Shown one piece after another: positions 1-13,107 of a stretch of 13,107 bases of DNA. The stretch is from IMG/VR virus record IMGVR_UViG_2648501150_000039; one strand, 5' to 3'. The position numbers and the translations under genes are program-made. The notes beneath the pieces are model-generated. The model made no database searches. It was not told where the DNA came from and worked only from the letters and a program-made list of their open reading frames with translations. This DNA comes from a virus (Duplodnaviria > Heunggongvirae > Uroviricota > Caudoviricetes). How positions within the stretch are numbered: position 1 is the first letter of the stretch; each line of letters begins with the position of its first letter.

Positions 1-16
1 AACATGAGCAAACAGA

Positions 17-46
17 CAAAAAAAGGGCCAGCCAATTGGCCAGCCC
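17..46 (-). terminator. Putative rho-independent terminator downstream of the 204..1133 gene
   Basis: Read on the minus strand, plus 25..46 forms an imperfect GC-rich hairpin (GGGCTGGCC-AATT-GGCTGGCCC, two G-U pairs) followed by a 7-nt U tract (plus 17..24 is AAAAAAA). It lies about 160 nt past the stop of the minus-strand CDS. Confidence 0.45.
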
Positions 47-203
47 TTCTTAACAGGATGTCGCTTAAGCGAAATCTTAGTTAAGACGCTTTTACATGAT
101 ACCATTGATAAACATGCATTTTTCATTATAAACAGTTAGTTATATGTATCACTAGTGTAGTCAAGTGCAGCCATAAACATGCTGTGTGGGCAGATTGTGG
201 ACA

Positions 204-1133
204 CTACTTATTTCCCTGTCCAATCTTACCCGCAACTGCCTCGGTAAGCTTTACTAAGGTTTCAAGTTCATTTTTGTCTAATTTTCTTGCTTCAATAATT
301 TCAGTAGTCTGCCCTGATTCTAGTTTTCCAACTCTTGAGCTAAAATTAATTTTATCCAGAAGGTCTATCATATCGATATCTTTCTGGCTAGCCATTACAA
401 GCTTTATAATGGCATAGCTTTCCTCACGTGAACGTTTTATTGCCTCGTAATAGCGAAACTCATCCATCGTAACCCGATATTGCTTCAAAAAGAAAAATGC
501 GATTAACTCCAAGAAAATCAACACGCCAAAATTAGGGAGAAGATACATTACCTTGGTTACCGCATCATCCTTAGCATCAATTACATGTGATTGAGAATAG
601 AAGAAACCTAATCCAACTATTGCAAAACAAACACCGACTAATAAATAAAGACTACCGCGAGAATATATGTTTTTCGCAAGACCTTCAGAGCTATTAATCA
701 AACCTTTAAGATAAAAATCCAGAGATTCATCTTCATCAGCAGCAGCCCTTTCCTCTTGAGCCTTCTTGAGTAGTTTTATCTCATTTATAATATCGACAAT
801 ATTAAACATCGATGATTTGTCGACTGAATCACTCCCTGTAATTCTCATAAACATTCTTTGGATTGGAGACACACCATAGATAATGGTGTAAACGATTACA
901 AATGACACTGCGAATATTGACCTGATAAAGCTCGGCAAATGTGTAAGATCTGCTCTCGCACTGGGAAATAAATAATAAAAGGTTGAGTCTAATATCCCTG
1001 TAGCAAAAATTACATTTGCAACTAGAAAGACTGCACCTATCTCAACTAAATTATAAAAACCACGAGTGCGTACCCTAATGACTTTGGCCTCGGTCATTCT
1101 TGGAGGTGTTTCGATGGTTGGCTCACTCATCAT
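204..1133 (-). CDS. Hypothetical membrane protein, four predicted transmembrane helices in two hairpins separated by a charged coiled-coil-like linker; function unknown
   Basis: 309-aa uninterrupted ORF. Hydrophobic stretches LVEIGAVFLVANVIFATGIL, IFAVSFVIVYTIIYGV, LYLLVGVCFAIVGLGFFY and VLIFLELIAFFFL. AGGA lies upstream of an ATGATG start. The gene is visibly AT-rich compared with the tail genes. I recognise no family. Confidence 0.6.
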   Translation of the reverse strand: MMSEPTIETPPRMTEAKVIRVRTRGFYNLVEIGAVFLVANVIFATGILDSTFYYLFPSARADLTHLPSFIRSIFAVSFVIVYTIIYGVSPIQRMFMRITGSDSVDKSSMFNIVDIINEIKLLKKAQEERAAADEDESLDFYLKGLINSSEGLAKNIYSRGSLYLLVGVCFAIVGLGFFYSQSHVIDAKDDAVTKVMYLLPNFGVLIFLELIAFFFLKQYRVTMDEFRYYEAIKRSREESYAIIKLVMASQKDIDMIDLLDKINFSSRVGKLESGQTTEIIEARKLDKNELETLVKLTEAVAGKIGQGNK

Positions 1134-1410
1134 ATAATCCTGTTAAATTAGAAATAGGGTTAAGAGTTACAGCTTCTTCTAAATGATCTGGTGCAAAATG
1201 AGCGTATCTCATGGTTTCCCTAATGTTAGAATGGCCCAAGATTCGTTGCAGTACTAAAATGTTCCCACCATTCATCATAAAGTGACTCGCAAATGTATGA
1301 CGTAACACATTCGTTTTTTGCCCTTCAGCTAACTCTATATCGGTCAGAGCGAGCATTTTCTTGAACTCCTGATAGCAGGGGTGGAACATTTTTCCCTGTA
1401 AAGGAGCCAA
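1123..1410 (-). pseudogene. Tyrosine recombinase (phage integrase) C-terminal fragment, 5'-truncated
   Basis: The 95-aa translation carries the catalytic C-terminal signature of tyrosine recombinases (VLRHTFASH ... LGHSNIRETMRYAH, with the His/Arg and Tyr boxes). The N-terminal two thirds are absent: sequence upstream of 1410 encodes tail-fibre segments on the other strand. The stop TGA overlaps the ATGATG start of the 204..1133 gene. Confidence 0.85.
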
Positions 1411-1447
1411 CTCGTCATATAGCCACCGAGGGATCGGTACTGTACGA

Positions 1448-1473
1448 TTCTTCTTTCCCTTGGTTTGGGAGAA
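1448..1473. repeat. Left crossover site of invertible segment (gix/hix-like, about 26 bp)
   Basis: The reverse complement of 1458..1474 (CTTCTCCCAAACCAAGG) matches 3466..3482 (CTTCTCCTAAACCAACG) at 15 of 17 positions, in inverted orientation. The half-site TTCTCCCAAACC resembles the Hin/Gin half-site (TTCTTGAAAACC / TTATCCAAAACC as I recall them). The central dinucleotide is AA/TT. The site sits in the fibre reading frame and encodes G-L-G-E. Confidence 0.7.
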
Positions 1474-1959
1474 GGCTCTGCATTACCTGTTGGCGTCCCT
1501 GTTCCGTGGCCTTCAGCCACACCGCCAACAGGCTGGCTGAAATGCAATGGTGCAGCTTTTTCTGCTGAAGAATACCCGGAACTGGCAAAGGCTTATCCGG
1601 CAAATAAATTGCCTGATTTACGTGGTGAGTTTATTCGTGGCTGGGATGACGGACGGGGGATTGATACAGGTCGCTCTATTTTAAGTATTCAGGGGTATGC
1701 AACGGAGGATCATGCTCATGGATTACCGTCAAGATCCACGATTGTGACTGATGCAACGATTAATTTCTATTTTGATGAAAGCTGGGTAAATAGTGGCACT
1801 GACATTATCAAAAGAGGAAACACAAACGATGCCGGATTACCAGCACCGGATTATGGAACCTTTAAAACATATAAACAATCAGTGGCTGGTTTAGGTGCCG
1901 CAGCCTCAGAAACGCGTCCGCGTAATATTGCATTTAACTATATCGTGAGGTCAGCCTGA
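1465..1959 (+). CDS. Tail fibre C-terminal variable segment (Sv-like, tail-collar type); lacks the N-terminal constant part
   Basis: Translation contains tail-collar-like motifs (PTGWLKCNGAAFSAEEYPELAKAY, LPDLRGEFIRGWDDGRGIDTGR). The frame is open only from 1423 and has no upstream coding sequence to join. The stop overlaps the start of the next gene (TGATG). Confidence 0.8.
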   Translation: MGEGSALPVGVPVPWPSATPPTGWLKCNGAAFSAEEYPELAKAYPANKLPDLRGEFIRGWDDGRGIDTGRSILSIQGYATEDHAHGLPSRSTIVTDATINFYFDESWVNSGTDIIKRGNTNDAGLPAPDYGTFKTYKQSVAGLGAAASETRPRNIAFNYIVRSA

Positions 1960-2561
1960 TGCATAAAGCAATATTAAATAGTGAGCTTATTGCAACAAAG
2001 GCAGGGGATGTTACCGTTTATAACTACGATGGTGAAACACGGGAATATATTTCCACGTCAACTGAATATCTTGCGGTTGGCGTCGGTATCCCGGCATGTT
2101 CTTGTTTAGATGCGCCAGTTACACATAAAGCTGGTTATGCAATCTGCCGTTCTGCAGATTTTAACTCATGGGAATATGTGCCAGACCATCGCGGTGAAAT
2201 CATCTATAGCACCGAAACAGGAGAATCGAAAGAAATCACAGCTCCGGGTGATTATCCTGAAAATACAACCACTATCGCCCCGTTAACGCCATACGATGAA
2301 TGGGATGGTGAGAAATGGGTAACAGATACTGTGGCACAGCATAGCGCCGCAGTAGGCGCGGCAGAAGCACAGCGTCAGTCACTGATTGATAATGCAATGG
2401 CTTCCATTAGTCTGATTCAGCTGAAATTGCAGGCCGGACGGAATCTGACGCAGGCAGAAACCGCCCGACTTAACGCTGCGCTGGATTACATTGACGCGGT
2501 GACGGCAACAGATACCAGCACCGCGCCGGATGTCATCTGGCCTGAACTGCCGGAGGCGTAG
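1959..2561 (+). CDS. Tail fibre assembly protein (Tfa / P2 gpG / Mu U family)
   Basis: 200 aa, immediately downstream of the fibre variable segment. The C-terminal DVIWPELPEA matches the conserved Tfa C-terminal motif. Confidence 0.85.
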   Translation: MHKAILNSELIATKAGDVTVYNYDGETREYISTSTEYLAVGVGIPACSCLDAPVTHKAGYAICRSADFNSWEYVPDHRGEIIYSTETGESKEITAPGDYPENTTTIAPLTPYDEWDGEKWVTDTVAQHSAAVGAAEAQRQSLIDNAMASISLIQLKLQAGRNLTQAETARLNAALDYIDAVTATDTSTAPDVIWPELPEA

Positions 2562-2976
2562 GCCATTCAATATCTGGCGCACCGGAAGTATCGACCAGTT
2601 CCAGTGCGTCCAGATAATCCAGCCACAAATTATATTGCGCCAGTTCCTCACCTTTCAGGCGACCAATCGCCGCTTTACCAGGCCATTGCTTACTGTATAT
2701 GTATTCGTTGACCTGATTAATCAATTGCTGCTTTTCCAGTTCGGCTGCAGCAATTTGTTCCTCATGAGTTGGCGGTGGAATTTCCCCCCAGGTGGGAAGG
2801 CCATCATCACCCGCGATGCGTACTTTCCCTTGCAACGTTCTGTCTTCAATAAATTCCAGGTAAGTGTCATATGTCACTTCGACAACATCAGCAAGTTCCC
2901 ATCCGGCCTGTTCATATTTCGCCACATCATTTTTAGCGAAAAAACTATTTTTTGAGGCGCTATAAACCATTTCCAT
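2533..2976 (-). CDS. Alternative tail fibre assembly protein (Tfa', opposite orientation)
   Basis: 147 aa, convergent with the other tfa gene and overlapping its 3' end by 29 bp. The C-terminal DIEWPTPPAV matches the Tfa motif. This is the Mu U/U'-like arrangement. Confidence 0.8.
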   Translation of the reverse strand: MEMVYSASKNSFFAKNDVAKYEQAGWELADVVEVTYDTYLEFIEDRTLQGKVRIAGDDGLPTWGEIPPPTHEEQIAAAELEKQQLINQVNEYIYSKQWPGKAAIGRLKGEELAQYNLWLDYLDALELVDTSGAPDIEWPTPPAVQAR

Positions 2977-2977
2977 A

Positions 2978-3553
2978 TTAATACCCTACTGCAATATAAA
3001 AAACTGATTCACCAGCGTCCTGAGAACCTACCCCCGGAACGCCAGACCAGGTTTTGTTAATGAATGCAAAACTGGTATTACTCAGATCAGATGCTCTGTA
3101 CATCGGGCTGAACATCCAGTAGTTGGCTCCATATGTTTGTCCGAAAACAATGCCATAGCACTGATTTGTAAATGGCGTAGAAAATAATTTTCCACCAGTA
3201 CCAGCGATAGTCCCGAATCGCATCTGGAACCCATTCGGGAAATTAATTCCGCCTGCCGGTGAAGACCAGTAAGACATATCAGGTATTTGCCCAGCACTAT
3301 TTCCCACGTTTTTTGTTGCAACGGTTCCTAACCCAAGATTAGCTCTTGCGTCAGATTTATTTGTTAACTCATAAAGATTATTTGCCTTTTGAAGTGCTCC
3401 TATTATGCGTAAATCATCACCAGCGGCAACGGTTCCGACTGTCGTGCCCACATCCCTTTTCGCCGCTTCTCCTAAACCAACGTTTTCGTTTTTATCCCTA
3501 CCTATACCAACTCTGTATTTTTCACGAAACAAAGAGGATGTTTTTTTATGCAA
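2978..3553 (-). CDS. Alternative tail fibre C-terminal variable segment (Sv'-like)
   Basis: Open frame on the minus strand running through the right crossover site, where it encodes NENVGLGE (the same GLGE junction as the left site). It is glycine-rich and fibre-like, and lies immediately upstream of tfa' on the same strand. The tracked start is an artefact; there is no constant N-terminal region. Confidence 0.7.
   Translation of the reverse strand: MHKKTSSLFREKYRVGIGRDKNENVGLGEAAKRDVGTTVGTVAAGDDLRIIGALQKANNLYELTNKSDARANLGLGTVATKNVGNSAGQIPDMSYWSSPAGGINFPNGFQMRFGTIAGTGGKLFSTPFTNQCYGIVFGQTYGANYWMFSPMYRASDLSNTSFAFINKTWSGVPGVGSQDAGESVFYIAVGY
3467..3492. repeat. Right crossover site of invertible segment (gix/hix-like)
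   Basis: TTCTCCTAAACC-AA-CGTTTTCGTTTT; 3466..3482 is the inverted-repeat partner of 1458..1474. It lies 55 bp upstream of the invertase start codon. Confidence 0.7.
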
Positions 3554-4147
3554 ATTGGCTATATTCGTGTGTCAACAAATGACCAGAACACGGATTTACA
3601 ACGCAATGCACTGAACTGCGCAGGATGTGAACTGATTTTTGAAGATAAAATCAGCGGAACGAAATCAGCCAGACCGGGATTGAAAAAACTGCTCAGAACG
3701 CTATCAGAAGGAGATACGCTGGTTGTCTGGAAGCTGGACAGACTGGGCAGAAGTATGAAACACCTGATCACGCTTATTGAGGAATTGCGGGAAAAAGGTG
3801 TTAATTTCCGTAGTCTGACGGACAGCATTGACACATCAACACCCATGGGGCGTTTCTTTTTTCACGTCATGGGGGCTTTAGCCGAAATGGAACGTGAATT
3901 AATTGTAGAGCGTACACTGGCCGGGCTGGCAGCAGCACGCGCACAAGGACGCATTGGCGGACGTCGCCCGAAGTTGACAAAAGAACAACACGAGCAAATA
4001 GCGAGGCTGATTAAAAACGGTCATGACAGGAAACAACTGGCGATCATTTACGACATCGGCATATCGACGATTTATCGTTATCACCCTGTAGGCGATATAC
4101 AGGCTGAAGAAACAACCAGGCAGACTCAGGAAAATAAAAACCGCTAA
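3548..4147 (+). CDS. Site-specific DNA invertase, serine recombinase (Hin/Gin/Pin/Cin family)
   Basis: The N-terminus MQIGYIRVSTNDQNTDLQRNAL contains the catalytic serine motif of resolvase/invertases. A C-terminal helix-turn-helix region follows (GRRPKLTKEQHEQIARLIKNGHDRKQLAIIYDIGISTIYRY). AGAGGA lies upstream of the ATG. The gene is adjacent to the invertible fibre segment. Confidence 0.95.
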   Translation: MQIGYIRVSTNDQNTDLQRNALNCAGCELIFEDKISGTKSARPGLKKLLRTLSEGDTLVVWKLDRLGRSMKHLITLIEELREKGVNFRSLTDSIDTSTPMGRFFFHVMGALAEMERELIVERTLAGLAAARAQGRIGGRRPKLTKEQHEQIARLIKNGHDRKQLAIIYDIGISTIYRYHPVGDIQAEETTRQTQENKNR

Positions 4148-4173: not shown

Positions 4174-4668
4174 TCAAAACAGCCCTTTAACGGAGCTGGC
4201 CGCGCTGTTAAGGGATGATGTGACCTTATCTTTGAAGCCGGACAGCATATCACTGAACGATGAGGATTGCAGGCGCTCCCGCAAATCCTCATCACAGCGT
4301 TCAAGAGTCAGTGAAAATTCTATCTTTTTCGCCTTACCGTAGCGATCAAACTCGGAACGGGTCGTATTCGTTTCAGTCAGTACATACATGCCGTAAATCT
4401 GCCCGACACCATCAATCAGAGGCCAGGGGCGTCCTGTATATGCCTGCGTGGTCAGCAACGAAAGCGACACTTCGCCACCTGTAATTTCAGGATAAAGCAC
4501 GCCGGAAAGCACGATGCGATCATCACCTGCGCCGATATACTGCCAGCTTGCTGAACGGTTAACGCGTTCATTTTTCACATGCCGCCAGCTTTTGTTTTGC
4601 TGTAACTGCTGATGCGGCAATGTGCGCAGCTCAAAAACAAACATGCCGTAGATCATCATCATGGCCAT
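4174..4668 (-). CDS. Phage tail protein, P2 gpU-like
   Basis: 164-aa ORF directly downstream of the tape measure gene in the same orientation, matching the position and size of gpU in the P2 FI-FII-E-T-U-D order. The exact start among several N-terminal Met codons is uncertain. Confidence 0.75.
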   Translation of the reverse strand: MAMMMIYGMFVFELRTLPHQQLQQNKSWRHVKNERVNRSASWQYIGAGDDRIVLSGVLYPEITGGEVSLSLLTTQAYTGRPWPLIDGVGQIYGMYVLTETNTTRSEFDRYGKAKKIEFSLTLERCDEDLRERLQSSSFSDMLSGFKDKVTSSLNSAASSVKGLF

Positions 4669-4674
4669 GACTCC

Positions 4675-7524
4675 TCAATCTTTATCGTAAAAACTGCCAC
4701 GCCCGGCACGGGCGCGCCGTTCCATTTCTGCCCTGACCATTTCGCCAATCAGTTTCGCCAGTTCGCGGGGATTCTGTGTAACAACGTTATGCAGATGAAC
4801 ATGAATTTCACCGCCAAATCCGGAGGCAACAGGCTCCCGGTTACGGGAAGTTGCAGGAACTGATGCCACTGGCGATCGTATAGCCTCCGCCACCGGGCGG
4901 GAGCTGGCCGCAACAACAGGGACCAGCGCCGGAGGCAGCGGAGCCGGAACCACGGGTGTGATAGTAATTGCGGGGGCAGGCTTACTGACCTGCGCAATCT
5001 TCCGCTCCTGCCACTCCCCACGAACAGCAAGTGCGCGGGGCAGGTTCTTAAAGACAATATCGCCGGGGCCAATGCGTTTTTTCGTCTCATCAACCAGCTT
5101 ACCTGTGTTATCAGCAATTTTGCTGAGTCTGCGTAGCGTACCGGTATTGTTGTCTGTGAGCGGTTTGTTGTCTCTGGGTTTATCGCCTTTTTTGTCGTCG
5201 ACCTTATCTGACGGGGCCGGGCCGGGAGTCCATGGTTTCTGAACCATTTTCTTGAGAACCGGATCCCATTCCCACATTACAGGAGCCTTTGAAGCGTTCT
5301 CTATTTTCTTTCTCGCCCGTTCCGCTTCATCCGGAAGCACTCCGAGCTTTTCAAGTATCCACGCCAGTGAATCCATCAATGCTTTTGTTGGCGTCAGGAC
5401 AAGCTCTATCGCTCCACCGAGTACCCTGCCGAATACCTCGCCAGCACTGGTACATTTATCCAGCGTTTCCTTGCTGGACTCCATCGGTGACAGCAGCGAT
5501 TTAAACCAGTTAAAGACCTGAATAATCCCATCGCGCACGACATCAAAAACTGGACCGAACCGTTCAAAGGTTTCGCGCAACGGAGCCAGCCGTTCCATAA
5601 TCCCACTGAACACCCCTGCATAAAACGCCTTGATGGGTTCCCAGTATTTCCAGATGAGAACCGCCGCAGCCACAAACGCAGCAGCAATCAATCCGACCGG
5701 GCTGAACAGCGCCCCGATAGCGCCCCCCAGTAACGAAACGGAACCCGTCACCATTCCCCATAGTGCTGGCAGGAGCCTGACAGCATTCATTGATCCGGTC
5801 AGGAGGGAAAAGCCAAGACGCAGTTTTGCCAGCGGGCCAGCAAGCACACCAATAGCCAACGACAACGAGCCGACCGTTGCAGTCATCGCCAGCAATGCCC
5901 CACCTGCAATCAGTAGCTGGCGCGTCAGTGCCGGATGGGCCTGCGCCAGCGCCGTCACCTTTGATACCACCCGCGTGAGCCACTGCGTGACAGAACGCAG
6001 CGGACCGTCAATCAGATCTGCAATGCGGATGCGCAACCCTTCCCATGCACTGCCGAGTGATTTCAGATCGCCGTCAAGGTTGTTGGCCATAACCTTTGCT
6101 GTGCGTTCAGCCTCACCGCGCGCGCCTTCAAGTTCTTTTCTCAGTTTGGGTAAGGAGCCGTCACCCGCTGCATCAACGAGCGCCATAAACGATGTGAAAG
6201 CCTCTTCTCCGGCAATGTCCTTAAAGAACGATACCCGGTCAACTTCCCCGTATTTGCGGGTGGCTTTATAAAGGTCGGCCAGTACATCCTCCATCGGGCG
6301 CATTTTGCCGTTCGCGTCAGAGACAGCCACACCCAGCTCTTTCAGCGCCTCTGCTGCCGCCTTTGGCGGTGATGCCAGACGAGCCAGGCTGGCACGCATT
6401 GCCGTCCCGGCATCACTCCCTCTGATGCCCATATTCGCCAGCACGCCCGCCATCGCAGCGGCCTGCTCCAGCGATATTCCCAGCTTACCCGCCACCGGAC
6501 CTGCATATTTCATGGTTTCGCCCAGCGCGCGAAGGTCAGTGTTGGTACGGGTAAACGCCGCTGTAAGCGTGTCGCCAACCCGGTCCATCTGGTCAGCAGA
6601 GAGGCCGAACTGCGTCAGGATATTTGAGCCAATATCCGCCGTCTCGCCGAGATCCATACCGCCAGCCGTTGCCATGCTCAGCACGCCGGGAAACGCAGCC
6701 TGAATGGCCTGCGGAGTAAAACCAGCCATTGCAAGAAATGCCTGTCCACTGGCGGCATCTCCAGCGGTGAACTGCGTTTCAGAGCCAAGTTTTAACGCCT
6801 GCTCACGCAGCGCCTTAAACTGTGGGCTGTTTTTGTCGATTCGCGTCAGTGCCTGAACGCGGGACATCTCTTTCCCGAACCCAATCGCGGGCTGCAAAAA
6901 ACGCCCGGCAGCATAGCCGCCCGCCGCTGCCGCACCTGTTGCCAGTGCACCACCTGTTTTCAGTTTTCCCGCGGTTTCCTGCGCGCGCGAATACCGCTCA
7001 CGCGCCCGCGTTACACGCGCAAGCGCCTGCCGTTCGCGTTCAAGCTGGTTGTTGTACTGTTCGGTGCGTCTGATGGCCTGCTGGATGGTGTTATCGCTGC
7101 CTGTCAGGGAAATGCCGTGGCGTTTCAGCTCTCCGCCAAGCTCCCGCATTTTCTGAATCTCCCGTGTGCGCGATTCATTCAGGCGTTCAAGCCGGGTGCT
7201 TAACTGCTGCATCAGCTTTTGTTGTTTTTCGCTGAGCACTGTACCCGTGCGTTGTAACTGATTAAGGGCGTTAAGCTGGCGTCGTGCTTTCACGATACCC
7301 GCATCCGCTTTACTGACAGCGTCGCGGGCGCGCTCAAATGAACGCGCCTGACGCTCGAGATTTTTGATCGCCCCCTGCGTTCGCTGGATGGAGTCACCAA
7401 ACTGCCCCATCAGGCGGCGTGCGTTTTCTGCAGGTCGGGTCAGCCTGTCAACGGCGCTGAAAGCGACCCGGATATCAAGAGTCTTCATTGTCTGCATTCC
7501 CGCTGCGAAGTGCCGCCCGCTCAC
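4675..7524 (-). CDS. Tail tape measure protein (P2 gpT-like)
   Basis: 949-aa ORF with a coiled-coil N-terminal third (repeated QRTxxL, ERxRQALAR-type heptads), a central Gly/Ala-rich hydrophobic segment, and a position between E/E' and U. The true start may be an internal Met (MQTMKTL), overlapping the end of E'. Confidence 0.9.
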   Translation of the reverse strand: MSGRHFAAGMQTMKTLDIRVAFSAVDRLTRPAENARRLMGQFGDSIQRTQGAIKNLERQARSFERARDAVSKADAGIVKARRQLNALNQLQRTGTVLSEKQQKLMQQLSTRLERLNESRTREIQKMRELGGELKRHGISLTGSDNTIQQAIRRTEQYNNQLERERQALARVTRARERYSRAQETAGKLKTGGALATGAAAAGGYAAGRFLQPAIGFGKEMSRVQALTRIDKNSPQFKALREQALKLGSETQFTAGDAASGQAFLAMAGFTPQAIQAAFPGVLSMATAGGMDLGETADIGSNILTQFGLSADQMDRVGDTLTAAFTRTNTDLRALGETMKYAGPVAGKLGISLEQAAAMAGVLANMGIRGSDAGTAMRASLARLASPPKAAAEALKELGVAVSDANGKMRPMEDVLADLYKATRKYGEVDRVSFFKDIAGEEAFTSFMALVDAAGDGSLPKLRKELEGARGEAERTAKVMANNLDGDLKSLGSAWEGLRIRIADLIDGPLRSVTQWLTRVVSKVTALAQAHPALTRQLLIAGGALLAMTATVGSLSLAIGVLAGPLAKLRLGFSLLTGSMNAVRLLPALWGMVTGSVSLLGGAIGALFSPVGLIAAAFVAAAVLIWKYWEPIKAFYAGVFSGIMERLAPLRETFERFGPVFDVVRDGIIQVFNWFKSLLSPMESSKETLDKCTSAGEVFGRVLGGAIELVLTPTKALMDSLAWILEKLGVLPDEAERARKKIENASKAPVMWEWDPVLKKMVQKPWTPGPAPSDKVDDKKGDKPRDNKPLTDNNTGTLRRLSKIADNTGKLVDETKKRIGPGDIVFKNLPRALAVRGEWQERKIAQVSKPAPAITITPVVPAPLPPALVPVVAASSRPVAEAIRSPVASVPATSRNREPVASGFGGEIHVHLHNVVTQNPRELAKLIGEMVRAEMERRARAGRGSFYDKD

Positions 7525-7711
7525 GCCAGCTAACCACTTCGCCGGGCGTCATCATGAAGATTTCGGCGGGCGACCAGTTAAAAATAACGGCAATATCTGC
7601 CACAAAGTCTTCTATGTGCTCAAAGCACACAACCGTGATCAGGCTTCCGTCGCCTGTTCGTTCTTCCCGCCAGAGTCCGCACCGCTCAAAAAATTTACGG
7701 CAACCACACAT
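7475..7711 (-). CDS. E' frame: C-terminal extension of the E+E' tail assembly chaperone, reached by -1 frameshift
   Basis: This ORF is in the -1 frame relative to E, begins around the slippery heptamer, and ends overlapping the start of T, as in the P2 E/E'/T arrangement. It is not an independent gene. Confidence 0.7.
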   Translation of the reverse strand: MCGCRKFFERCGLWREERTGDGSLITVVCFEHIEDFVADIAVIFNWSPAEIFMMTPGEVVSWRERAALRSGNADNEDS

Positions 7712-8004
7712 AACTGAATAAAGTCACGGGATGCCATTTTTTTGATCGTCACTTCATCCAGTCGCGGTGATGTCACGCGTGACAGCAGCGTAAACATGGA
7801 TTCCGCTTTCAGATTCAGCACATCAGACAGCGACAAATCTCGCAGAGATCCAGCCTGCTCAATAGCCCCGGTGATCTCCACATACGTGATTTTTTCGCCG
7901 CCTCGCTCAATTGGTTGGGTAAGTTTTACGCCACGCTCACTGGTTTCTTTCACAGTGTCAGCAACTACCGTGTTTTCGGTATCGATGTTTTTCGTCTCTT
8001 TCAT
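7639..8004 (-). CDS. Tail assembly chaperone, P2 gpE-like (0-frame product)
   Basis: 121-aa ORF between the tail tube and tape measure genes. AAAGGAG lies 7 nt upstream of the ATG. It contains the slippery site near its 3' end. Confidence 0.75.
   Translation of the reverse strand: MKETKNIDTENTVVADTVKETSERGVKLTQPIERGGEKITYVEITGAIEQAGSLRDLSLSDVLNLKAESMFTLLSRVTSPRLDEVTIKKMASRDFIQLCVVAVNFLSGADSGGKNEQATEA
7687..7693 (-). other. Programmed -1 ribosomal frameshift slippery heptamer T_TTT_TTG (E to E+E')
   Basis: The minus strand reads GTA AAT TTT TTG AGC in the E frame (V N F L S). Slipping back one nucleotide enters the 7475..7711 frame (RKFFERCGLW...). TTTTTTG is the heptamer used by P2-like E/E' genes. 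Confidence 0.75.
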
Positions 8005-8058
8005 CAGGAAACTCCTTTCAGTCAGAGGCGGCGCACTGCGCCGCCTGCATATTACTTA

Positions 8059-8571
8059 TCAGCCAAGCCCAAGCGCGGAACGGATGCGATCGGGCACAAT
8101 GTCCTTGCCGTCCTTCCGGTAAATGAAGTTCAGCAGGTCAATCTCCCACAACGGGCGATCGTTAACACTCAGCTTGTAGTAGGTGTTTTTAATGGCGTAA
8201 GTGTGTGATGTGGCTTCGCCCTGTTTGGCTTCCCCCATATCAATTTCCGTCACACGTCCGCGCATCTCGATTTCATACAGATCGCTTTCTGCATCGGTGT
8301 AGTATTCACCCGCAAAACGCAGCAGCGTGCCGTCAATCGTGCCGCCATACTTAAGGAACAGCTCACGAACTGCGCCCCCCATGACAAAGCTCGCATCAAG
8401 CGCGGAGTCGTCCAGACCGAGATCAATACTTACCGCACCCATCATGCCACCACCCCGGTAGCTGTCGGTTTTGCGCGTCAGCTTAGGCAGAGTGACGGAC
8501 GTCACCTTACCCACTTCGTTTTCACCATCCACAAACAGCGTAAAAAAGCGAAGATGTTTTGGTACAGCCAT
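8059..8571 (-). CDS. Tail tube protein (P2 gpFII-like)
   Basis: 170 aa, immediately downstream of the sheath gene with a TGATG stop/start overlap. Size and position match the P2 tube protein. Confidence 0.85.
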   Translation of the reverse strand: MAVPKHLRFFTLFVDGENEVGKVTSVTLPKLTRKTDSYRGGGMMGAVSIDLGLDDSALDASFVMGGAVRELFLKYGGTIDGTLLRFAGEYYTDAESDLYEIEMRGRVTEIDMGEAKQGEATSHTYAIKNTYYKLSVNDRPLWEIDLLNFIYRKDGKDIVPDRIRSALGLG

Positions 8572-9755
8572 CAGGCACCTCCCAGCACCGCAAATGCGGG
8601 ACCAAAGAATTCATCAGTAAACGACTGGTAAAGCTCCATGTCTTCCAGCGGGGGAACAGGCGTATATTTGTAGCGAATACGCACACGCCCCTGACGTAAA
8701 TTCGTGGTGCCGTTATCCACCACGTCATACCAGCACGACGCCCCAATCAGTTTCCCGGCAGTAACCAGTGAATCCAGTTTTGCCCTGATGGCACTGATAA
8801 CATCTTTCACGTTCGCAGGCGTCAGTGGACTGTCGATGGTTTCAAACTGCGCTTCCGCAATTGAATCAGCCAGCACCTGTGCGGTTCGGGTATACACCTC
8901 AAAGATGTAGGCGTTCGTTTCCGGTGTGCGGTTGCCCCAGAAGCGGAACCCGTTGCGACGAATAATGGTCGTGATTTCTTTGTTGTTGAGGCTGTTGGCA
9001 TCGCTGTCTTCGGCCTGCAACGACCAGAACACATGCCTGGACATCCCCAGCACATTTTTAACCGGAACGTTGGACAGTGATTTGTGCCATCCCTGCTCAT
9101 GGTCAATGTACGCACGAAGGCCGCACGCATAGGCAGGCGCGGGGAACGTTTCGTTTTTGCCACTTTTCGGGTTGTAGGCGATGAAGTCCGGCCATAAGAG
9201 CATCACCTCACGTTCGTTGAATTTCTGGCGGTAGGTAATCACCTCAGCCATCGTGTTACAGCCGTGACATGAGGCATACACAAACGCGCGCAGTTTACCC
9301 GCAATCACGCACAGGGATTTTGTCACCGCCTCCGTGTCCAGCTCCGGCGCGGCCAGAATACGCGGACGGTATCCGATGCTTTCATCCTGCTCTGCAACAA
9401 GCAGCGCATACATCCCCGTATAGCTGCCGTCAGATTCAGAACCACCGATAACCAGTTGATCCTGCGTCTTTCCGTCTTCTTCTTTGTGTTCAGCCACGCG
9501 AACGACGATCACCTTTGTGCTCACCTGGTCTGCGATGGCCTTAAGCGCACGATAAAGCGTCCCCGTTGTCCCGCATTTTCCCAGCACGTCATTGACGCGG
9601 GTCAGCAGTGTGGGCTTGTTCAGCGGGAACAGCTTCGCGTCCGCATCATCCGCCGTTGCCACGATACCGATAACGCTGGAATCAACATCGTTAATCGCTG
9701 TTACCAGGTCGGTATTTTCCGTAACACGGGCACCATGAAAACGAGTTTCACTCAT
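8571..9755 (-). CDS. Contractile tail sheath protein (P2 gpFI-like)
   Basis: 394 aa. Motifs I recall from P2 FI are present: FPLNKP, KLRAF, YRQKF, WPDF, EQGWHKSLSNV, RRNGFRFWGNRT, YTRTAQV, YTPVPPLE. AAGGGG lies upstream of the ATG. Confidence 0.92.
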   Translation of the reverse strand: MSETRFHGARVTENTDLVTAINDVDSSVIGIVATADDADAKLFPLNKPTLLTRVNDVLGKCGTTGTLYRALKAIADQVSTKVIVVRVAEHKEEDGKTQDQLVIGGSESDGSYTGMYALLVAEQDESIGYRPRILAAPELDTEAVTKSLCVIAGKLRAFVYASCHGCNTMAEVITYRQKFNEREVMLLWPDFIAYNPKSGKNETFPAPAYACGLRAYIDHEQGWHKSLSNVPVKNVLGMSRHVFWSLQAEDSDANSLNNKEITTIIRRNGFRFWGNRTPETNAYIFEVYTRTAQVLADSIAEAQFETIDSPLTPANVKDVISAIRAKLDSLVTAGKLIGASCWYDVVDNGTTNLRQGRVRIRYKYTPVPPLEDMELYQSFTDEFFGPAFAVLGGA

Positions 9756-9912: not shown

Positions 9913-11022
9913 ATGACCGATACCACCATGCAATTGCTCAGTCAGGGCACAGACCCCGTGAAAATGCCGGATTTTGATATTCTCGCGGAGGGTAAAACGC
10001 TGTCAGGCGTGGCAGAGCGCCTGATGAGCCTGTCACTGACCGACAACCGGGGATTTGACGCGGACCAGCTCACCATCACGCTGGATGATGCGGATGGTCA
10101 GTTGCAGCTACCGCCACGGGGCGCGCGCCTGACGGTTCTCATTGGCTGGAAAGGAGAACCGCTGACAGAAAAAGGCACTTACATTGTTGATGAAATCGCT
10201 CACGAAGGACCGCCGGACAGGCTGACTGTTTCAGCCAGAAGCGCAGATTTTCGGGATGAATTTAACGTTAAACGTGAGGTGTCCTGGCATGATGTGACCG
10301 TTGAGCGTGTGGTATCCGCCATCGCTCATCGGTATGGTCTGAAACCGCAAATCAGCGAAATGCTGATGGATATCGAAATCGACCACGCCGACCAGACCGA
10401 AGAAAGCGATATGTCCTTCCTTACGCGCATGGCGGAAATGCTGGGCGCAATCACCACGGTAAAAAGCGGCAATCTGTTATTCATCATGCCAGGTGGTGGC
10501 GTGAACGCACAGGGCCAGCCGTTGCCATCGTTCGCCATCACACGCAGCAGCGGCGATCGCCATCAGTTCCGCATTGCTGACCGCGAGGCGTATACGGGGG
10601 TACGCGCTTACTGGCTTGATCTTAATTACGGGAAAAAGAAAAAAGTCAGCGTGAAACGCCGCAAACCGCCAAAACCCAAAAAGGAGAAAAGCAGCAGCCG
10701 TGAAGGTGATTATATGGAAGGCGCGGAAGGCAATGTGTTTGTGTTACGCAAGACTTATCAGAACGAGCAGGCAGCAAGACGCGCAGCGGCGGCAAAGTGG
10801 CAGCAGCTACAACGCGGAGCCGCATCATTTTCCATCACGCTGGCGCGTGGACGTGCAGAACTCTACCCCGAAATGCATGGCACGGTAACAGGATTTAAAA
10901 GCGAGATTGATAATCAGGACTGGATTATTGCAAAAGCCGAGCACACCATTGATAACAGCGGCTTTACCACGCAGCTTGAGCTTGAGGCAAAAATCCCGGA
11001 ATGGATAGCAGAAACAGCGTGA
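9913..11022 (+). CDS. Phage late control gene D family tail protein (P2 gpD-like)
   Basis: Long ORF; the likely start is the ATG at 9913, preceded by GGGAGGGAA (the tracked ORF starts upstream at 9781). Size is about 370 aa. The call rests on overall resemblance to P2 gpD as recalled and on its position next to the other P2 tail genes and ogr. Confidence 0.8.
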   Translation: MTDTTMQLLSQGTDPVKMPDFDILAEGKTLSGVAERLMSLSLTDNRGFDADQLTITLDDADGQLQLPPRGARLTVLIGWKGEPLTEKGTYIVDEIAHEGPPDRLTVSARSADFRDEFNVKREVSWHDVTVERVVSAIAHRYGLKPQISEMLMDIEIDHADQTEESDMSFLTRMAEMLGAITTVKSGNLLFIMPGGGVNAQGQPLPSFAITRSSGDRHQFRIADREAYTGVRAYWLDLNYGKKKKVSVKRRKPPKPKKEKSSSREGDYMEGAEGNVFVLRKTYQNEQAARRAAAAKWQQLQRGAASFSITLARGRAELYPEMHGTVTGFKSEIDNQDWIIAKAEHTIDNSGFTTQLELEAKIPEWIAETA

Positions 11023-11075
11023 ATGTCTTAAATGTATTAGTTCAGATATGTACTAGCAATAAACATAGTTAGAAA

Positions 11076-11091
11076 GGCCGCTAACGCGGCC
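11076..11091. terminator. Hairpin between convergent gpD and the 11114..12283 gene (possible bidirectional terminator)
   Basis: GGCCGC-TAAC-GCGGCC, a 6-bp GC stem with a tetraloop in an AT-rich context. It is located after both stop codons. The U-tracts are weak. Confidence 0.4.
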
Positions 11092-11113
11092 ATATTAATT
11101 AAAACTCCAGTTA

Positions 11114-12283
11114 CTAATATTGAGAAAGATAATCAGCGACTCCATCTGCAGGGTTTCGCCCACCAGTATAAATTGTGCCTAATTCTTGAGGTGTAACATA
11201 TGTTGTAGGCCAAATGGCCATATTTTTAAAATAGTTATCTATTTTTATTCTTTGAAGTTCTTTAAAGAGATAATCTTCTAAGTCATTTCTTTTTAGACAG
11301 TTAACATAATAAGCAGCCGCACTTGCTACTATATCTACAATTTGTAATTGAGGATACTCTTGTGATGAATGGAATGTCAAAGAACGAGCTTTAATTGGCA
11401 ATTCAAATTTTCTTCGATCATAACCATATGCCTCCGTAATTTTTGATATATCCATAAATTTATCAAAAATATCTTTCTTCTCTGTAATAGCTTTGGAATC
11501 GTCATGCTTAATATAAAAACCATTAGGGTATAATTTACCCCATTCTACACAGTGTCTAAAGAGGCTTGGTATAGATGGATCTAATGTGCTTTTCTCAACA
11601 CCTTCCAATATATCATCAATATCGCTTCTGGTAATACTAATTCTGTTTATTATATCTGTGAATATCTTATCACTTGAGCATATCTTTAACTCATCAATTA
11701 CCCTGTAAAATTCATCAATTGACTCAGTCGATTGGCTTCTGATCATATTCATAAAACACTGATACATTACCTCTGTTTTTTCCTCCCCACAGAAAGCAGG
11801 GAAACAGAAATAGTAAACATTAGACAGAGCTAGATTCTGTCCATTTATATAAAGATCTATTCCTCTATTAGAGCACCACGTCTCGATCAAAATATCAACA
11901 ATCTTTGCTGTTAGCATGTATTTTTTATCGACCAAGTATATTTTAACATTCTCTTCATTGACATATTTGCTTTCAAGAAGCCTAATGATGCCATCCTGAC
12001 CAGATTTTCTACGTCTAAGAGTTTTAAAGTGGGCTTCTGTTGGAGACTTGCTTCCGGTTAGTTCTAATGCCTTAAGCGCATCCTGTTTACTAATACTACT
12101 TGAACTTAAGGTAAAAACAGGTTGCAATGGATCGAGTAAATTTCCGCCAGTATTACCTGATTCATCAAAAAATATATCAGGCTTTATATACAACATTTTA
12201 TTTATCTTTGCCGCTAAGTTTCTTTTTTTCTCATTTTCTCGCTTAATTTTATTATCTCGCCTACGTTGACTATTCTTTCCCAT
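11114..12283 (-). CDS. Hypothetical protein, AT-rich cargo gene; possible DUF3800-like family (motif-level recall only)
   Basis: 389-aa uninterrupted ORF antisense to both gpD and ogr. K/R-rich N-terminus, then DIFFDESGNTGG; near the C-terminus QLQIVDIVASAAAYY. These resemble the DESG and Q-x-x-(A/V)-D signatures I associate with DUF3800. Codon usage is strongly AT-biased, unlike the flanking phage genes. Confidence 0.65.
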   Translation of the reverse strand: MGKNSQRRRDNKIKRENEKKRNLAAKINKMLYIKPDIFFDESGNTGGNLLDPLQPVFTLSSSSISKQDALKALELTGSKSPTEAHFKTLRRRKSGQDGIIRLLESKYVNEENVKIYLVDKKYMLTAKIVDILIETWCSNRGIDLYINGQNLALSNVYYFCFPAFCGEEKTEVMYQCFMNMIRSQSTESIDEFYRVIDELKICSSDKIFTDIINRISITRSDIDDILEGVEKSTLDPSIPSLFRHCVEWGKLYPNGFYIKHDDSKAITEKKDIFDKFMDISKITEAYGYDRRKFELPIKARSLTFHSSQEYPQLQIVDIVASAAAYYVNCLKRNDLEDYLFKELQRIKIDNYFKNMAIWPTTYVTPQELGTIYTGGRNPADGVADYLSQY

Positions 12284-12515
12284 AAATACCTCACAATCTG
12301 AATTAGATATCCCAATTTAACGCATTAATAACATAATGTTATGATATCACACAATCAAAATAACGTGCTGATTTTAATGTATCAGGTTTGACTAGCTATT
12401 CTTTGATAAGCGAATAATAAGAATGTCAGCCCCTCAACTCAAAGCGGTTTAGTCAGTTGGAATCGGAGCTAGTAGAACTTAAAATAACAGAAGCACCACG
12501 TTAAGGGAGGTCTCT

Positions 12516-12776
12516 ATGTTCCGTTGTCCGCTTTGTGGCGCATCTGCCCGTATCCGCACAAGTCGTCCGGAAAATGATTCAAACACCGTGCGGCAAAAGT
12601 ATTACCAGTGTAACAACCTGGAATGCGGCGTATGCTTCTCAACACTGGAAGCCTTCCATAAATTCACATCAAAACACGCCTCCGCCGTTCACTCTTCAGA
12701 AGGTATCCCGTGGCATGAGCTGCCAGCTTCACACAGGGGAAACAATCAGATGAGTTTGCCTTTACCTCAGAACTAA
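12516..12776 (+). CDS. ogr: Ogr/Delta-family zinc-finger late transcription activator
   Basis: The N-terminus MFRCPLCGASARIRTSR ... YYQCNNLEC gives a C-x2-C ... C-x4-C zinc-finger spacing close to P2 Ogr (MFHCPLC ... CQNVNC). Strong SD AAGGGAGG lies upstream. It sits downstream of gpD, as in P2. Confidence 0.85.
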   Translation: MFRCPLCGASARIRTSRPENDSNTVRQKYYQCNNLECGVCFSTLEAFHKFTSKHASAVHSSEGIPWHELPASHRGNNQMSLPLPQN

Positions 12777-12836: not shown

Positions 12837-13100
12837 ATGGTCGGAGGGAATACCCGAAGGCCAGATGTGGAAAGGCCCCGGAAAACATCTCTGTTTAACC
12901 GAGGCCCTAACCGCATTACCTTGACAAGTGAAAGGTTAGCGCCTCTCCGGAAAAGGAGCAAGTGCTATGTCGCAAAAATCGCTTACGGCCATCACGTTCT
13001 GCGTGACGGCAATCCTCATCATCTGGATGCTGCACGGTTCACTGTGCGAAATACGGATGAGCTTCTGGGGAGCGGAGTTTGCGGCGTTCTTACAGTGTAA
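12837..13100 (+). other. mok-like overlapping reading frame (possible translational-coupling ORF for the hok-family toxin)
   Basis: 87-codon ORF in a different frame that overlaps almost the whole toxin ORF and ends 7 nt before it. This is analogous to mok in hok/sok loci, but may be fortuitous. Confidence 0.3.
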
Positions 13101-13107
13101 GCAGTAA
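12967..13107 (+). CDS. Hok/Gef-family type I toxin (small membrane peptide)
   Basis: Manual translation gives the 46-aa peptide MSQKSLTAITFCVTAILIIWMLHGSLCEIRMSFWGAEFAAFLQCKQ. It has an N-terminal transmembrane helix, then SLCEIR and EFAAFLQCK, matching the Hok-family signature (compare Hok ...SLCEIR...EVAAFMAYE). AAGGAG lies 8 nt upstream. It was not in the ORF track because it is under 60 aa. The stop is the last codon in the window. Confidence 0.75.
   Translation: MSQKSLTAITFCVTAILIIWMLHGSLCEIRMSFWGAEFAAFLQCKQ

Follow-up and report, generated by a model that had tools for sequence, protein, structure and literature searches.

The window, by which we mean the whole 13,107-nt stretch of phage DNA that was analyzed, carries on its minus strand the gene order tail tube, tail assembly chaperone and tape measure: FII (8571..8059; PF04985, E=1e-46), directly followed by E (8004..7639) and then by T (7488..4675; PF10145, E=3e-58). 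By its open reading frame, its translation and its position between FII and T, E is a tail assembly chaperone gene of 121 aa, running from an ATG at 8004 to a TGA at 7641..7639. Toward its 3' end, the context GTA AAT TTT TTG (V N F L) holds a P2-type slippery heptamer, T_TTT_TTG (7693..7687), whose first T is the third base of AAT and which covers the codons Phe105-Leu106. From there the -1 frame stays open for 70 sense codons, as far as a TGA at 7477..7475, and this E' extension (7687..7475), appended to E residues 1-106, gives a 176-aa E+E' fusion. The first-pass annotation had placed the heptamer in the E frame at V-N-F-L and had described a 70-codon -1 frame that overlaps the tape-measure start, and both descriptions hold. 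The E' stop overlaps T by 14 nt if T begins at the ATG at 7488, or by 23 nt if it begins at a second in-frame ATG at 7497; the 14-nt overlap is also the one found in the PGAP annotation of near-identical prophages.

A second in-phase heptamer, A_AAT_TTT (7696..7690, Asn104-Phe105), overlaps the first, and had been missed in the earlier reading of this DNA. Both lie near the 3' end of E within an 85-nt stretch (7723..7639) in which the 0 and -1 frames are open together, its limits being set by a -1 stop that precedes 7723 and by the end of E at 7639, and a productive E/E' shift must fall inside it. The 14 genes of the window (3,854 codons) contain 18 in-phase X_XXY_YYZ heptamers. The two in E give the longest -1 extensions among these (70-71 codons), and they exceed what chance would supply, because they alone stand near a gene's 3' end with a -1 frame that outlasts the 0-frame stop. 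A run of seven A's in E (7737..7731) was considered as an alternative slip site and rejected, since its phase is wrong and a stop at 7726..7724 interrupts the -1 frame.

The -1 frame belongs to a known protein family. Its translation matches Pfam PF06528, "Phage P2 GpE" (E=1.9e-12, 46.9 bits against a cut-off of 23 bits), which places a conserved C-terminal domain of E' at 7603..7496 on the minus strand (residues 40-75 of translated 7720..7475), and phrog_1756 matches fusion residues 103-174 (E=2.4e-39), starting at the slip site. E itself matches phrog_103, "tail protein" (E=3e-35), and, weakly, PF10109 Phage_TAC_7 (17.2 bits, under the 25-bit cut-off); it has no NCBIfam match, and searches of the fusion against NCBIfam and PDB sequences yielded nothing useful. 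BLASTP gives an end-to-end alignment of the fusion with P2 gpE+E' (E=8e-26, 31% identity, fusion residues 23-172), and the slip sites of the window and of P2 fall in one alignment column, with V-x-F-L aligned; a pairwise alignment with P2 gpE covers E residues 23-106. Both the Pfam match and the BLASTP alignment make the -1 extension homologous to the P2 E' domain. The exact P2 pattern claimed by the first-pass annotation is thus borne out in the tube-E/E'-T order, in the T_TTT_TTG phase and in the E' stop lying over the T start, all as in P2, and the chaperone pair is, as it had proposed, intact at the sequence level, with the E and E' frames both open and their fusion alignable with P2 gpE+E'. 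We consider it very probable, from sequence comparison, that the cassette is a P2-type E/E+E' programmed -1 ribosomal frameshift.

Conservation of the site and of the two-frame layout across relatives is consistent with this reading. An in-phase T_TTT_TTG is present in 69 of the 79 interpretable relatives in our survey, and T_TTT_TTN in 75; the four without it keep an upstream X_XXT_TTY, and among near-identical IMG/VR loci the site is kept in 77 of 80. The heptamer is therefore conserved in homologs, though not universal, and every relative that has not decayed has an open -1 frame. For an x-F-L peptide, window codon usage predicts the heptamer in only 1.3% of cases, against the 69/79 seen, a figure that is not a true probability because the surveyed sequences are related. 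Loci L004-L006 and L089-L091 were examined as possible natural in-frame E-E' fusions and set aside, as they carry extra indels (draft errors or decay).

The -1 frame is also under purifying selection. When the window is compared with P884B11, dS is 0.289 and dN 0.026 (dN/dS 0.09) in the unique part of E', whereas in two control frames over the same part dN is about equal to dS or exceeds it (dN/dS about 1 or more). Inside the overlap it is the -1 frame that is better conserved (dN/dS 0.14, versus 0.57 in the tail of E), and four lineages have a W..ER.GDG motif in common. The earlier reading had taken the intact heptamer as direct evidence that the tail operon is under purifying selection rather than decaying. 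This stands for the family, in which U, T, FII, FI, E and D have dN/dS values of 0.00-0.20, but not demonstrably for the copy at hand, since the intact heptamer of a single sequence does not directly testify to selection on it.

Two other routes to E' have to be weighed against a ribosomal shift. RefSeq/PGAP annotate a 51-aa ORF ("GpE family phage tail protein" or "tail protein"), which would make E' a separate protein starting at a GTG at 7630, with no frameshift. We find this most improbable, given that the start codon is not conserved in relatives (GTT GCG, CTG CGG and GCA GTA are seen), that no Shine-Dalgarno-like sequence lies upstream, that conservation and selection of the -1 frame extend upstream beyond 7630, as far as the heptamer, and that some records carry no E' annotation; P2 genetics, as far as PMC3091744 recounts it, likewise shows a fusion. 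The strict conservation of the X_XXY_YYZ phase is, for its part, a ribosomal rather than a transcriptional signature, and it bears on a second possibility, namely that RNA polymerase, slipping on the T6 run, makes mRNA that lacks one U or carries two extra, from which the -1 product would be read. Six T's are, as a matter of general knowledge, short for efficient polymerase slippage; moreover, the run is no longer than T4 (AAATTTTA) in the sister clade discussed below and is TTTCTT in the Klebsiella type, and both still show the two-frame layout. Polymerase slippage thus strikes us as very unlikely, even if the site is a homopolymer run and some phage and IS genes do rely on transcriptional slippage (reviewed in PMC5009743).

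We suggest that the programmed ribosomal shift, if it occurs here, would be driven by nothing more than the slippery sequence, unaided by a downstream RNA stimulator. The first-pass annotation had pointed to a downstream stimulatory structure as a check on its claim, and no conserved structure was found. The 60 nt downstream of the window site fold worse than shuffles (z=+1.19), and the 90-nt segment gives z=-0.94. When the 60, 90 and 120 nt after the site were folded for five loci (the window, P2, P884B11, ST16-OXA48phi5.4 and phiT5282H), none convincingly beat shuffles, the best z-scores (-1.9 to -2.0) being reached in long segments only. The RNAalifold consensus of 17 relatives (-3.13 kcal/mol) has no helix in its first 75 nt, no stable, conserved 3' stem-loop or pseudoknot of the dnaX, IS or coronavirus type stands 5-9 nt downstream of the site, and a scan of the whole window against Rfam gave no family at its gathering score. 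One hairpin, of 9 bp at about 7631..7611, was rejected as a stimulator, since it lies 56 nt away and is not conserved beyond the P88 group. As a candidate for an upstream stimulator resembling a Shine-Dalgarno sequence, AAGGTGRT is conserved just 5' of the site in P2-type loci, where it encodes K-V-V/I-G; it is absent from the window.

That T_TTT_TTG is the site used here would follow from the analogy with P2, on which the assignment depends because the heptamer is not universal. Indeed, a sister clade at ~85% identity, which includes the plaque-forming ΦSM, keeps only A_AAT_TTT, so that T_TTT_TTG is no more than the putative site here. In this clade (P884B11, Shae_phiSM and two E. coli prophages, the latter being samples from the 545 E. 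coli records at 80-90% identity) the sequence is GTA AAT TTT ATG, so that TTTTTTG is lost and A_AAT_TTT is the only heptamer left; hundreds of E. coli genomes carry it. The same pattern of turnover recurs in Klebsiella phages, with two loci that read CCT TTC TTG, in which TTTTTTG is lost and C_CCT_TTC is kept at the upstream position.

It is possible, if rather doubtful, that the slip site in this lineage is A_AAT_TTT, or both heptamers in tandem, and not T_TTT_TTG alone; under an A_AAT_TTT slip, the product would read …VNFFER… rather than …VNFLER…. The nearest sister clade retained just this heptamer when it lost TTTTTTG, its member ΦSM forms plaques, and both independent losses of TTTTTTG fall where an upstream heptamer exists, which is otherwise the case in only 12 of 75 loci. 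The independent loss events nevertheless number only two, T_TTT_TTG is the consensus of the family and, in P2, the site defined by experiment, and a slip on A_AAT_TTT would leave tRNA-Asn on AAA with a wobble mismatch. The evidence from ΦSM is also imperfect, since the ΦSM paper reports non-contractile tails, a poor fit with a P2-like genome. We would tentatively entertain the idea that in the P88/Xuanwuvirus lineage the two heptamers of A_AAT_TTT_TTG work in tandem or redundantly, and that this redundancy let the sister clade lose T_TTT_TTG, the ancestral P2 site, and use A_AAT_TTT alone.

Under the P2-type reading, we posit that most ribosomes would read E to its stop at 7639 and yield the 121-aa chaperone, while a minority would slip back one base on the U-run of GUA AAU UUU UUG (7696..7687), read 70 more codons and yield the 176-aa E+E', with the conserved GpE domain as its C-terminus. 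Judged by P2 E/E+E' and lambda G/GT, the E portion present in both products would bind the tape-measure protein T and the E' part would recruit the tube protein FII, whereupon tail-tube polymerization would start at a fixed chaperone ratio, with neither E nor E+E' expected to stay in the virion. Because the E' stop overlaps the T start, we would also speculate that translation of T may be partly coupled to the frameshifted ribosomes, tying T dose to E+E'.

The cassette lies in a truncated element. Position 1 of the window comes directly after the stop codon of host yfiB, and is followed by a hypothetical gene, an integrase fragment (1123..1410) and a tail-fiber H fragment (1465..1959) that retains only the C-terminal 164 aa; the window element lacks genes for head, baseplate, lysis and replication. 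It looks like a remnant left by a deletion, in which an integrase fragment is joined to a truncated tail-fiber gene, and hence expression of E/E' in this genome is uncertain. We see roughly even chances that the cassette is here a silent relic, intact only since the deletion that formed the remnant is recent, and not under selection. FI, FII, E, E', T, U, D and ogr are all full length, which argues against such a relic, but their intactness may simply reflect youth, because the region is 99.3% identical to live phage P88. The relic reading further accords with the host flank running straight into the hypothetical gene, the integrase fragment and truncated H, with the 99.3-100% identity of the region to live phage or prophage copies, and with the Symbiopectobacterium copies, which show true decay (indels, internal stop) with the heptamer still present. 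The missing genes could, on the other hand, sit elsewhere if the junction were a chromosomal rearrangement between two prophages, which is possible since the junction (2831..3466) falls in the invertible tail-fiber segment. No convincing inverted repeats were found as invertase crossover sites, and the junction at 2500..3800 was present in no complete E. coli genome searched.

The main value of these observations is for annotation. RefSeq/PGAP and P88-type records split the pair or omit E', instead of giving one slippage-joined CDS, and the cassette occurs in 1374 of 5426 complete E. coli genomes (about a quarter). Members of the family differ in their slip heptamer, and the natural variants (T_TTT_TTG, A_AAT_TTT only and C_CCT_TTC only) form a ready series in which the effect of heptamer identity on the chaperone ratio could be measured. 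An intact recoding site is, however, no proof of a functional prophage.

Among known systems, Escherichia phage P88 (genus Xuanwuvirus, NC_026014), which is inducible and plaque-forming (PMC5285337), shares 99.3% nucleotide identity with the window over 7400..8080, the slip site and the layout being the same in both. P88, however, is complete as a phage, and the window holds a remnant in which there is an additional DUF3800 gene; in the P88 record, E' stands as an independent 51-aa ORF, with no slippage annotated. The lambda tail assembly chaperones G and GT, reportedly the subject of work by Levin in 1993 and by Xu, Hendrix and Duda in 2004, 2013 and 2014, resemble the P2 type in that the shift depends on a slippery heptamer, the ratio is fixed and low, and neither chaperone is in the virion; they differ from the window in having no detectable sequence similarity, in the site G_GGA_AAG, and in serving a siphovirus tail rather than a contractile P2-type one. 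The lambda product ratio is 30:1 where PMC5009743 quotes it. Burkholderia phages KS5, KS14 and KL3, which infect other hosts and whose proteins are 49-59% identical to those of P2, against ~31% for this lineage, have a conserved TTTTTTG, inferred from sequence only, with no hairpin in the 60 nt downstream (PMC3091744).

P2 itself (NC_001895), whose RefSeq record annotates a "-1 translational frameshift", has the tube gene, then E/E', then the tape measure, as in the window, and its site, GGT TTT TTG, has the same T_TTT_TTG phase; both are alike in lacking a downstream RNA structure. The two differ in length (E of 121 aa in the window versus 91 in P2, E+E' of 176 versus 142), in the -1 frame (70 codons versus 57), in the E'/T overlap (14 nt versus 8 nt) and in the codons of E after the slip site (15 versus 6). 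Relative to P2, the window also has the overlapping A_AAT_TTT heptamer and, in E', an extra linker of ~10 residues (W..ER.GDG), and its lineage has FI-FII-E-T-U with D on the opposite strand, where P2 has a single F operon (FI, FII, E, E', T, U, D). The programmed -1 frameshift of P2 E/E+E' was reportedly described by Christie and co-workers in the Journal of Bacteriology in 2002. According to PMC3091744, which refers to Christie 2002 and Xu 2004, shifting at TTTTTTG in P2 yields products of 91 and 142 aa without a downstream structure, and, going by the work cited there, it is for P2 only that E and the fusion are established as both made and both needed for tails. The P2-type E/E+E' feature is already known, and it is to this type that the cassette of the window very probably belongs.

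The tail genes FI (sheath, 9755..8571), FII (tube, 8571..8059), E (tail assembly chaperone, 8004..7639, 121 aa), T (tape measure, 7488..4675) and U (4668..4174) all lie on the minus strand, each with the expected Pfam domain. Within E, the heptamer TTTTTTG occupies 7693..7687, its first T being the third base of codon Asn104, and E reads through it as GTA AAT TTT TTG (V-N-F-L), in the phase T_TTT_TTG. The -1 frame opens at 7723 and continues for exactly 70 sense codons past the heptamer to a TGA at 7477..7475; the end of this extension, E', overlaps the start codon of T (ATG 7488) by 14 nt, and the predicted E+E' fusion is 176 aa long. The first-pass annotation had described this phase, the 70-codon frame and the overlap with T, and was right in every element. 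The E/E' frameshift, a textbook case of recoding established by experiment, is seen here in an element closely related to known phages and is as such already known.

The -1 frame is coding sequence, because it matches Pfam PF06528 "Phage P2 GpE" (E=1.9e-12), because the fusion matches phrog_1756 (E=2.4e-39) from residue 103, the slip site, and because dN is low (0.026, against a dS of 0.289) in the part of E' overlapping no other gene, when the window is compared with P884B11, a phage of the sister clade at 85% identity. Translated in either of the other two frames, as a control, these unique bases have a dN similar to or greater than dS. Where E and E' overlap, the -1 frame is better conserved than the E tail (dN/dS 0.14 vs 0.57). 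There are 18 in-phase X_XXY_YYZ heptamers across the window's 14 genes (3,854 codons), and only the two in E lie near a gene's 3' end with a -1 frame that outruns the 0-frame stop. In RefSeq/PGAP, E' is a 51-aa "GpE family phage tail protein" in its own right, which starts, without slippage, at a GTG equivalent to 7630. We reject a stand-alone E', because this GTG is unconserved in relatives and conservation of the -1 frame extends upstream of it to the heptamer. In the public records, E' (7475..7630) is entered as an independent 51-aa ORF in P88 (NC_026014, gp46) and PGAP records, and is missing from the annotation of Shae_phiSM, ST16-OXA48phi5.4 and phiT5282H; the annotation gap is systematic across the genus, and its correction is one modest outcome of this work. 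We also note that 7521..7552 (minus strand, inside E') exactly matches a 32-nt spacer, ATGACGCCCGGCGAAGTGGTTAGCTGGCGTGA, in a type I-E CRISPR array of E. coli GmM066. The protospacer is preceded by ATG, a type I-E PAM. An E. coli strain has thus become immunized against this family of phages, with the E' coding sequence as the target.

Among 80 near-identical IMG/VR loci, both heptamers and the layout are kept in 76, and one further locus keeps the site with a 1-nt change in a T5 run within E'; the remaining three belong to the 85% group and have extra indels, which are probably draft errors. A more diverse set of 86 combined the window, P2 and four phage records with 80 loci taken from a scan of one genome per species; 79 of the 86 were interpretable, after four truncated at contig ends and three from Symbiopectobacterium had been set aside. 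The heptamer had been called conserved, and T_TTT_TTN is indeed found in phase at the conserved position in 75 of the 79 (T_TTT_TTG in 69, T_TTT_TTA in four, T_TTT_TTC in two), but it is not universal: P884B11 and Shae_phiSM keep only A_AAT_TTT, and Klebsiella phage ST16-OXA48phi5.4 and a K. michiganensis locus only C_CCT_TTC. Because codon usage in the window predicts that only 1.3% of x-F-L would be encoded as NNT TTT TTG, what is conserved is the nucleotide sequence itself; no formal probability is attached to this, since the loci are related by descent. The three Symbiopectobacterium cassettes (L089, L090 and L091) are visibly decayed, with TTTTTTG retained in all. One carries a compensating indel through which E and E' are read as a single frame; in the others the frame is broken several times and a W codon has become a stop. 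These copies, with extra indels and an internal stop, are what a decaying cassette looks like.

The sequence GTA AAT TTT TTG holds a second, overlapping in-phase heptamer, A_AAT_TTT (7696..7690), which the first reading overlooked. The sister clade (~85% identity) reads GTA AAT TTT ATG, the P2-type heptamer being lost and A_AAT_TTT alone left; the 545 E. coli records that fall between 80 and 90% identity were attributed to this clade, and two were sampled. One of its members, ΦSM (Shae_phiSM) of Citrobacter rodentium, forms plaques, and its tails have been described as non-contractile, a poor fit to a P2-like genome (PMC6456863). T_TTT_TTG has been lost in two independent lineages, both with an upstream X_XXT_TTY heptamer, which occurs in only 12 of the 75 other loci. 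Either heptamer is a candidate for the window's slip site, and the alternative products would differ by one residue (…NFLER… vs …NFFER…). Natural variation of the slip heptamer is a second modest outcome.

A search for a downstream stimulatory structure, suggested at first pass, found none: the downstream 60 nt are less stably folded than shuffled controls (z=+1.19), an RNAalifold consensus of 17 relatives (-3.13 kcal/mol) has no helix within the first 75 nt, and an Rfam search of the window gave no match. Folding over 90 nt (z=-0.94) and 120 nt (z=-1.88) is driven by a 9-bp hairpin, UGUGUGCUU-UGA-GCACAUA (7611..7631, minus strand), just past the E stop, which is kept in P884B11 and absent from more distant relatives and, being 56 nt downstream of the slip site, is too distant for a canonical stimulator. 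The result agrees with the published absence of such a structure in P2 and P2-like Burkholderia phages (PMC3091744). Transcriptional slippage is an unlikely source of the -1 product, since functional relatives carry no more than T4 or TTTCTT there. The evidence best supports -1 ribosomal frameshifting driven by the heptamer, which would keep E and E+E' in a fixed ratio. If the pair works like lambda G/GT (PMC5009743), the common E part would bind the tape measure, the E' extension would recruit the tube protein, and neither product would stay in the virion; that the shift happens in this lineage, along with its ratio and these protein roles, is inferred.

Over the 681 bp spanning the site, the window shares 99.3% identity with Escherichia phage P88 (Xuanwuvirus, Peduoviridae), which is inducible and plaque-forming (PMC5285337), and 100% with a prophage of E. 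coli O157:H7 FRIK944; the region is carried by 1374 of 5426 complete E. coli genomes. The tail operon had been claimed to be under purifying selection rather than decaying. At the family level this stands, dN/dS against P884B11 being low (U 0.00, D 0.04, FII 0.05, FI 0.10, T 0.19, E 0.20). These ORFs are all full length in the window, but the claim is undemonstrated for this copy, which sits in a defective or rearranged element. The window begins immediately after the stop codon of yfiB, and its positions 1..2831 share 98.9% identity (100% across 1..1500) with a yfiB-adjacent remnant of E. coli E2348/69. After the host flank come a hypothetical gene (1133..204), a C-terminal piece of a tyrosine integrase (1410..1123) and, of the tail-fibre gene H, just the final 164 aa (1465..1959); between the flank and the tail genes the window lacks genes for head, baseplate, lysis and replication. 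From 3466 on, the window is a P88-type module, whereas in E2348/69 the remnant adjoins a true P2-type FI-FII-E-E'-T-U-D-ogr module; the window's junction is absent among complete E. coli genomes. The left third (1..3466) is a deletion remnant or mosaic, and because the cassette is intact inside such an element, youth explains its intactness as well as selection does. The identity of the feature was correctly called, and the universality of the heptamer and what intactness proves were over-stated.

The join falls within an invertible tail-fibre segment (1465..4147), where two opposed sets of tail-fibre C-terminus and assembly-protein genes (1465..2561, plus; 3553..2533, minus) adjoin a serine DNA invertase (3548..4147); long inverted repeats marking crossover sites were not found in this segment. 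An insert between gpD and ogr (11023..12475) carries the gene for a 389-aa DUF3800 protein (ORF 11114..12283, minus), which some E. coli prophages have and P88 and P884B11 lack; it had no match in a PADLOC defence-system search and is probably a cargo gene (moron). The ogr gene (12516..12776) and a Hok/Gef toxin gene (12967..13107) also follow D.

The single F operon of P2 (FI, FII, E, E', T, U, D) is split in the window's genus, gpD (9913..11022, plus) being divergent from FI-FII-E-T-U (4174..9755, minus). Relative to P2, the window's protein has a longer N-terminus and a ~10-residue extra linker past the site (W..ER.GDG), common to Klebsiella and Enterobacter phages, and E continues for 15 codons after the heptamer, against 6 in P2. 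The P2 RefSeq record annotates E (91 aa) and a joined E+E' (142 aa, "-1 frameshift"), with GGT TTT TTG as the site, and the P2 pattern recognized at first pass is borne out: the slip-site phase is identical, the E' stop of P2 likewise overlaps the T start (by 8 nt), and the window's fusion aligns with P2 gpE+E' over residues 23 to 172 (31% identity, E=8e-26), with the V-x-F-L slip residues of both in the same alignment columns.
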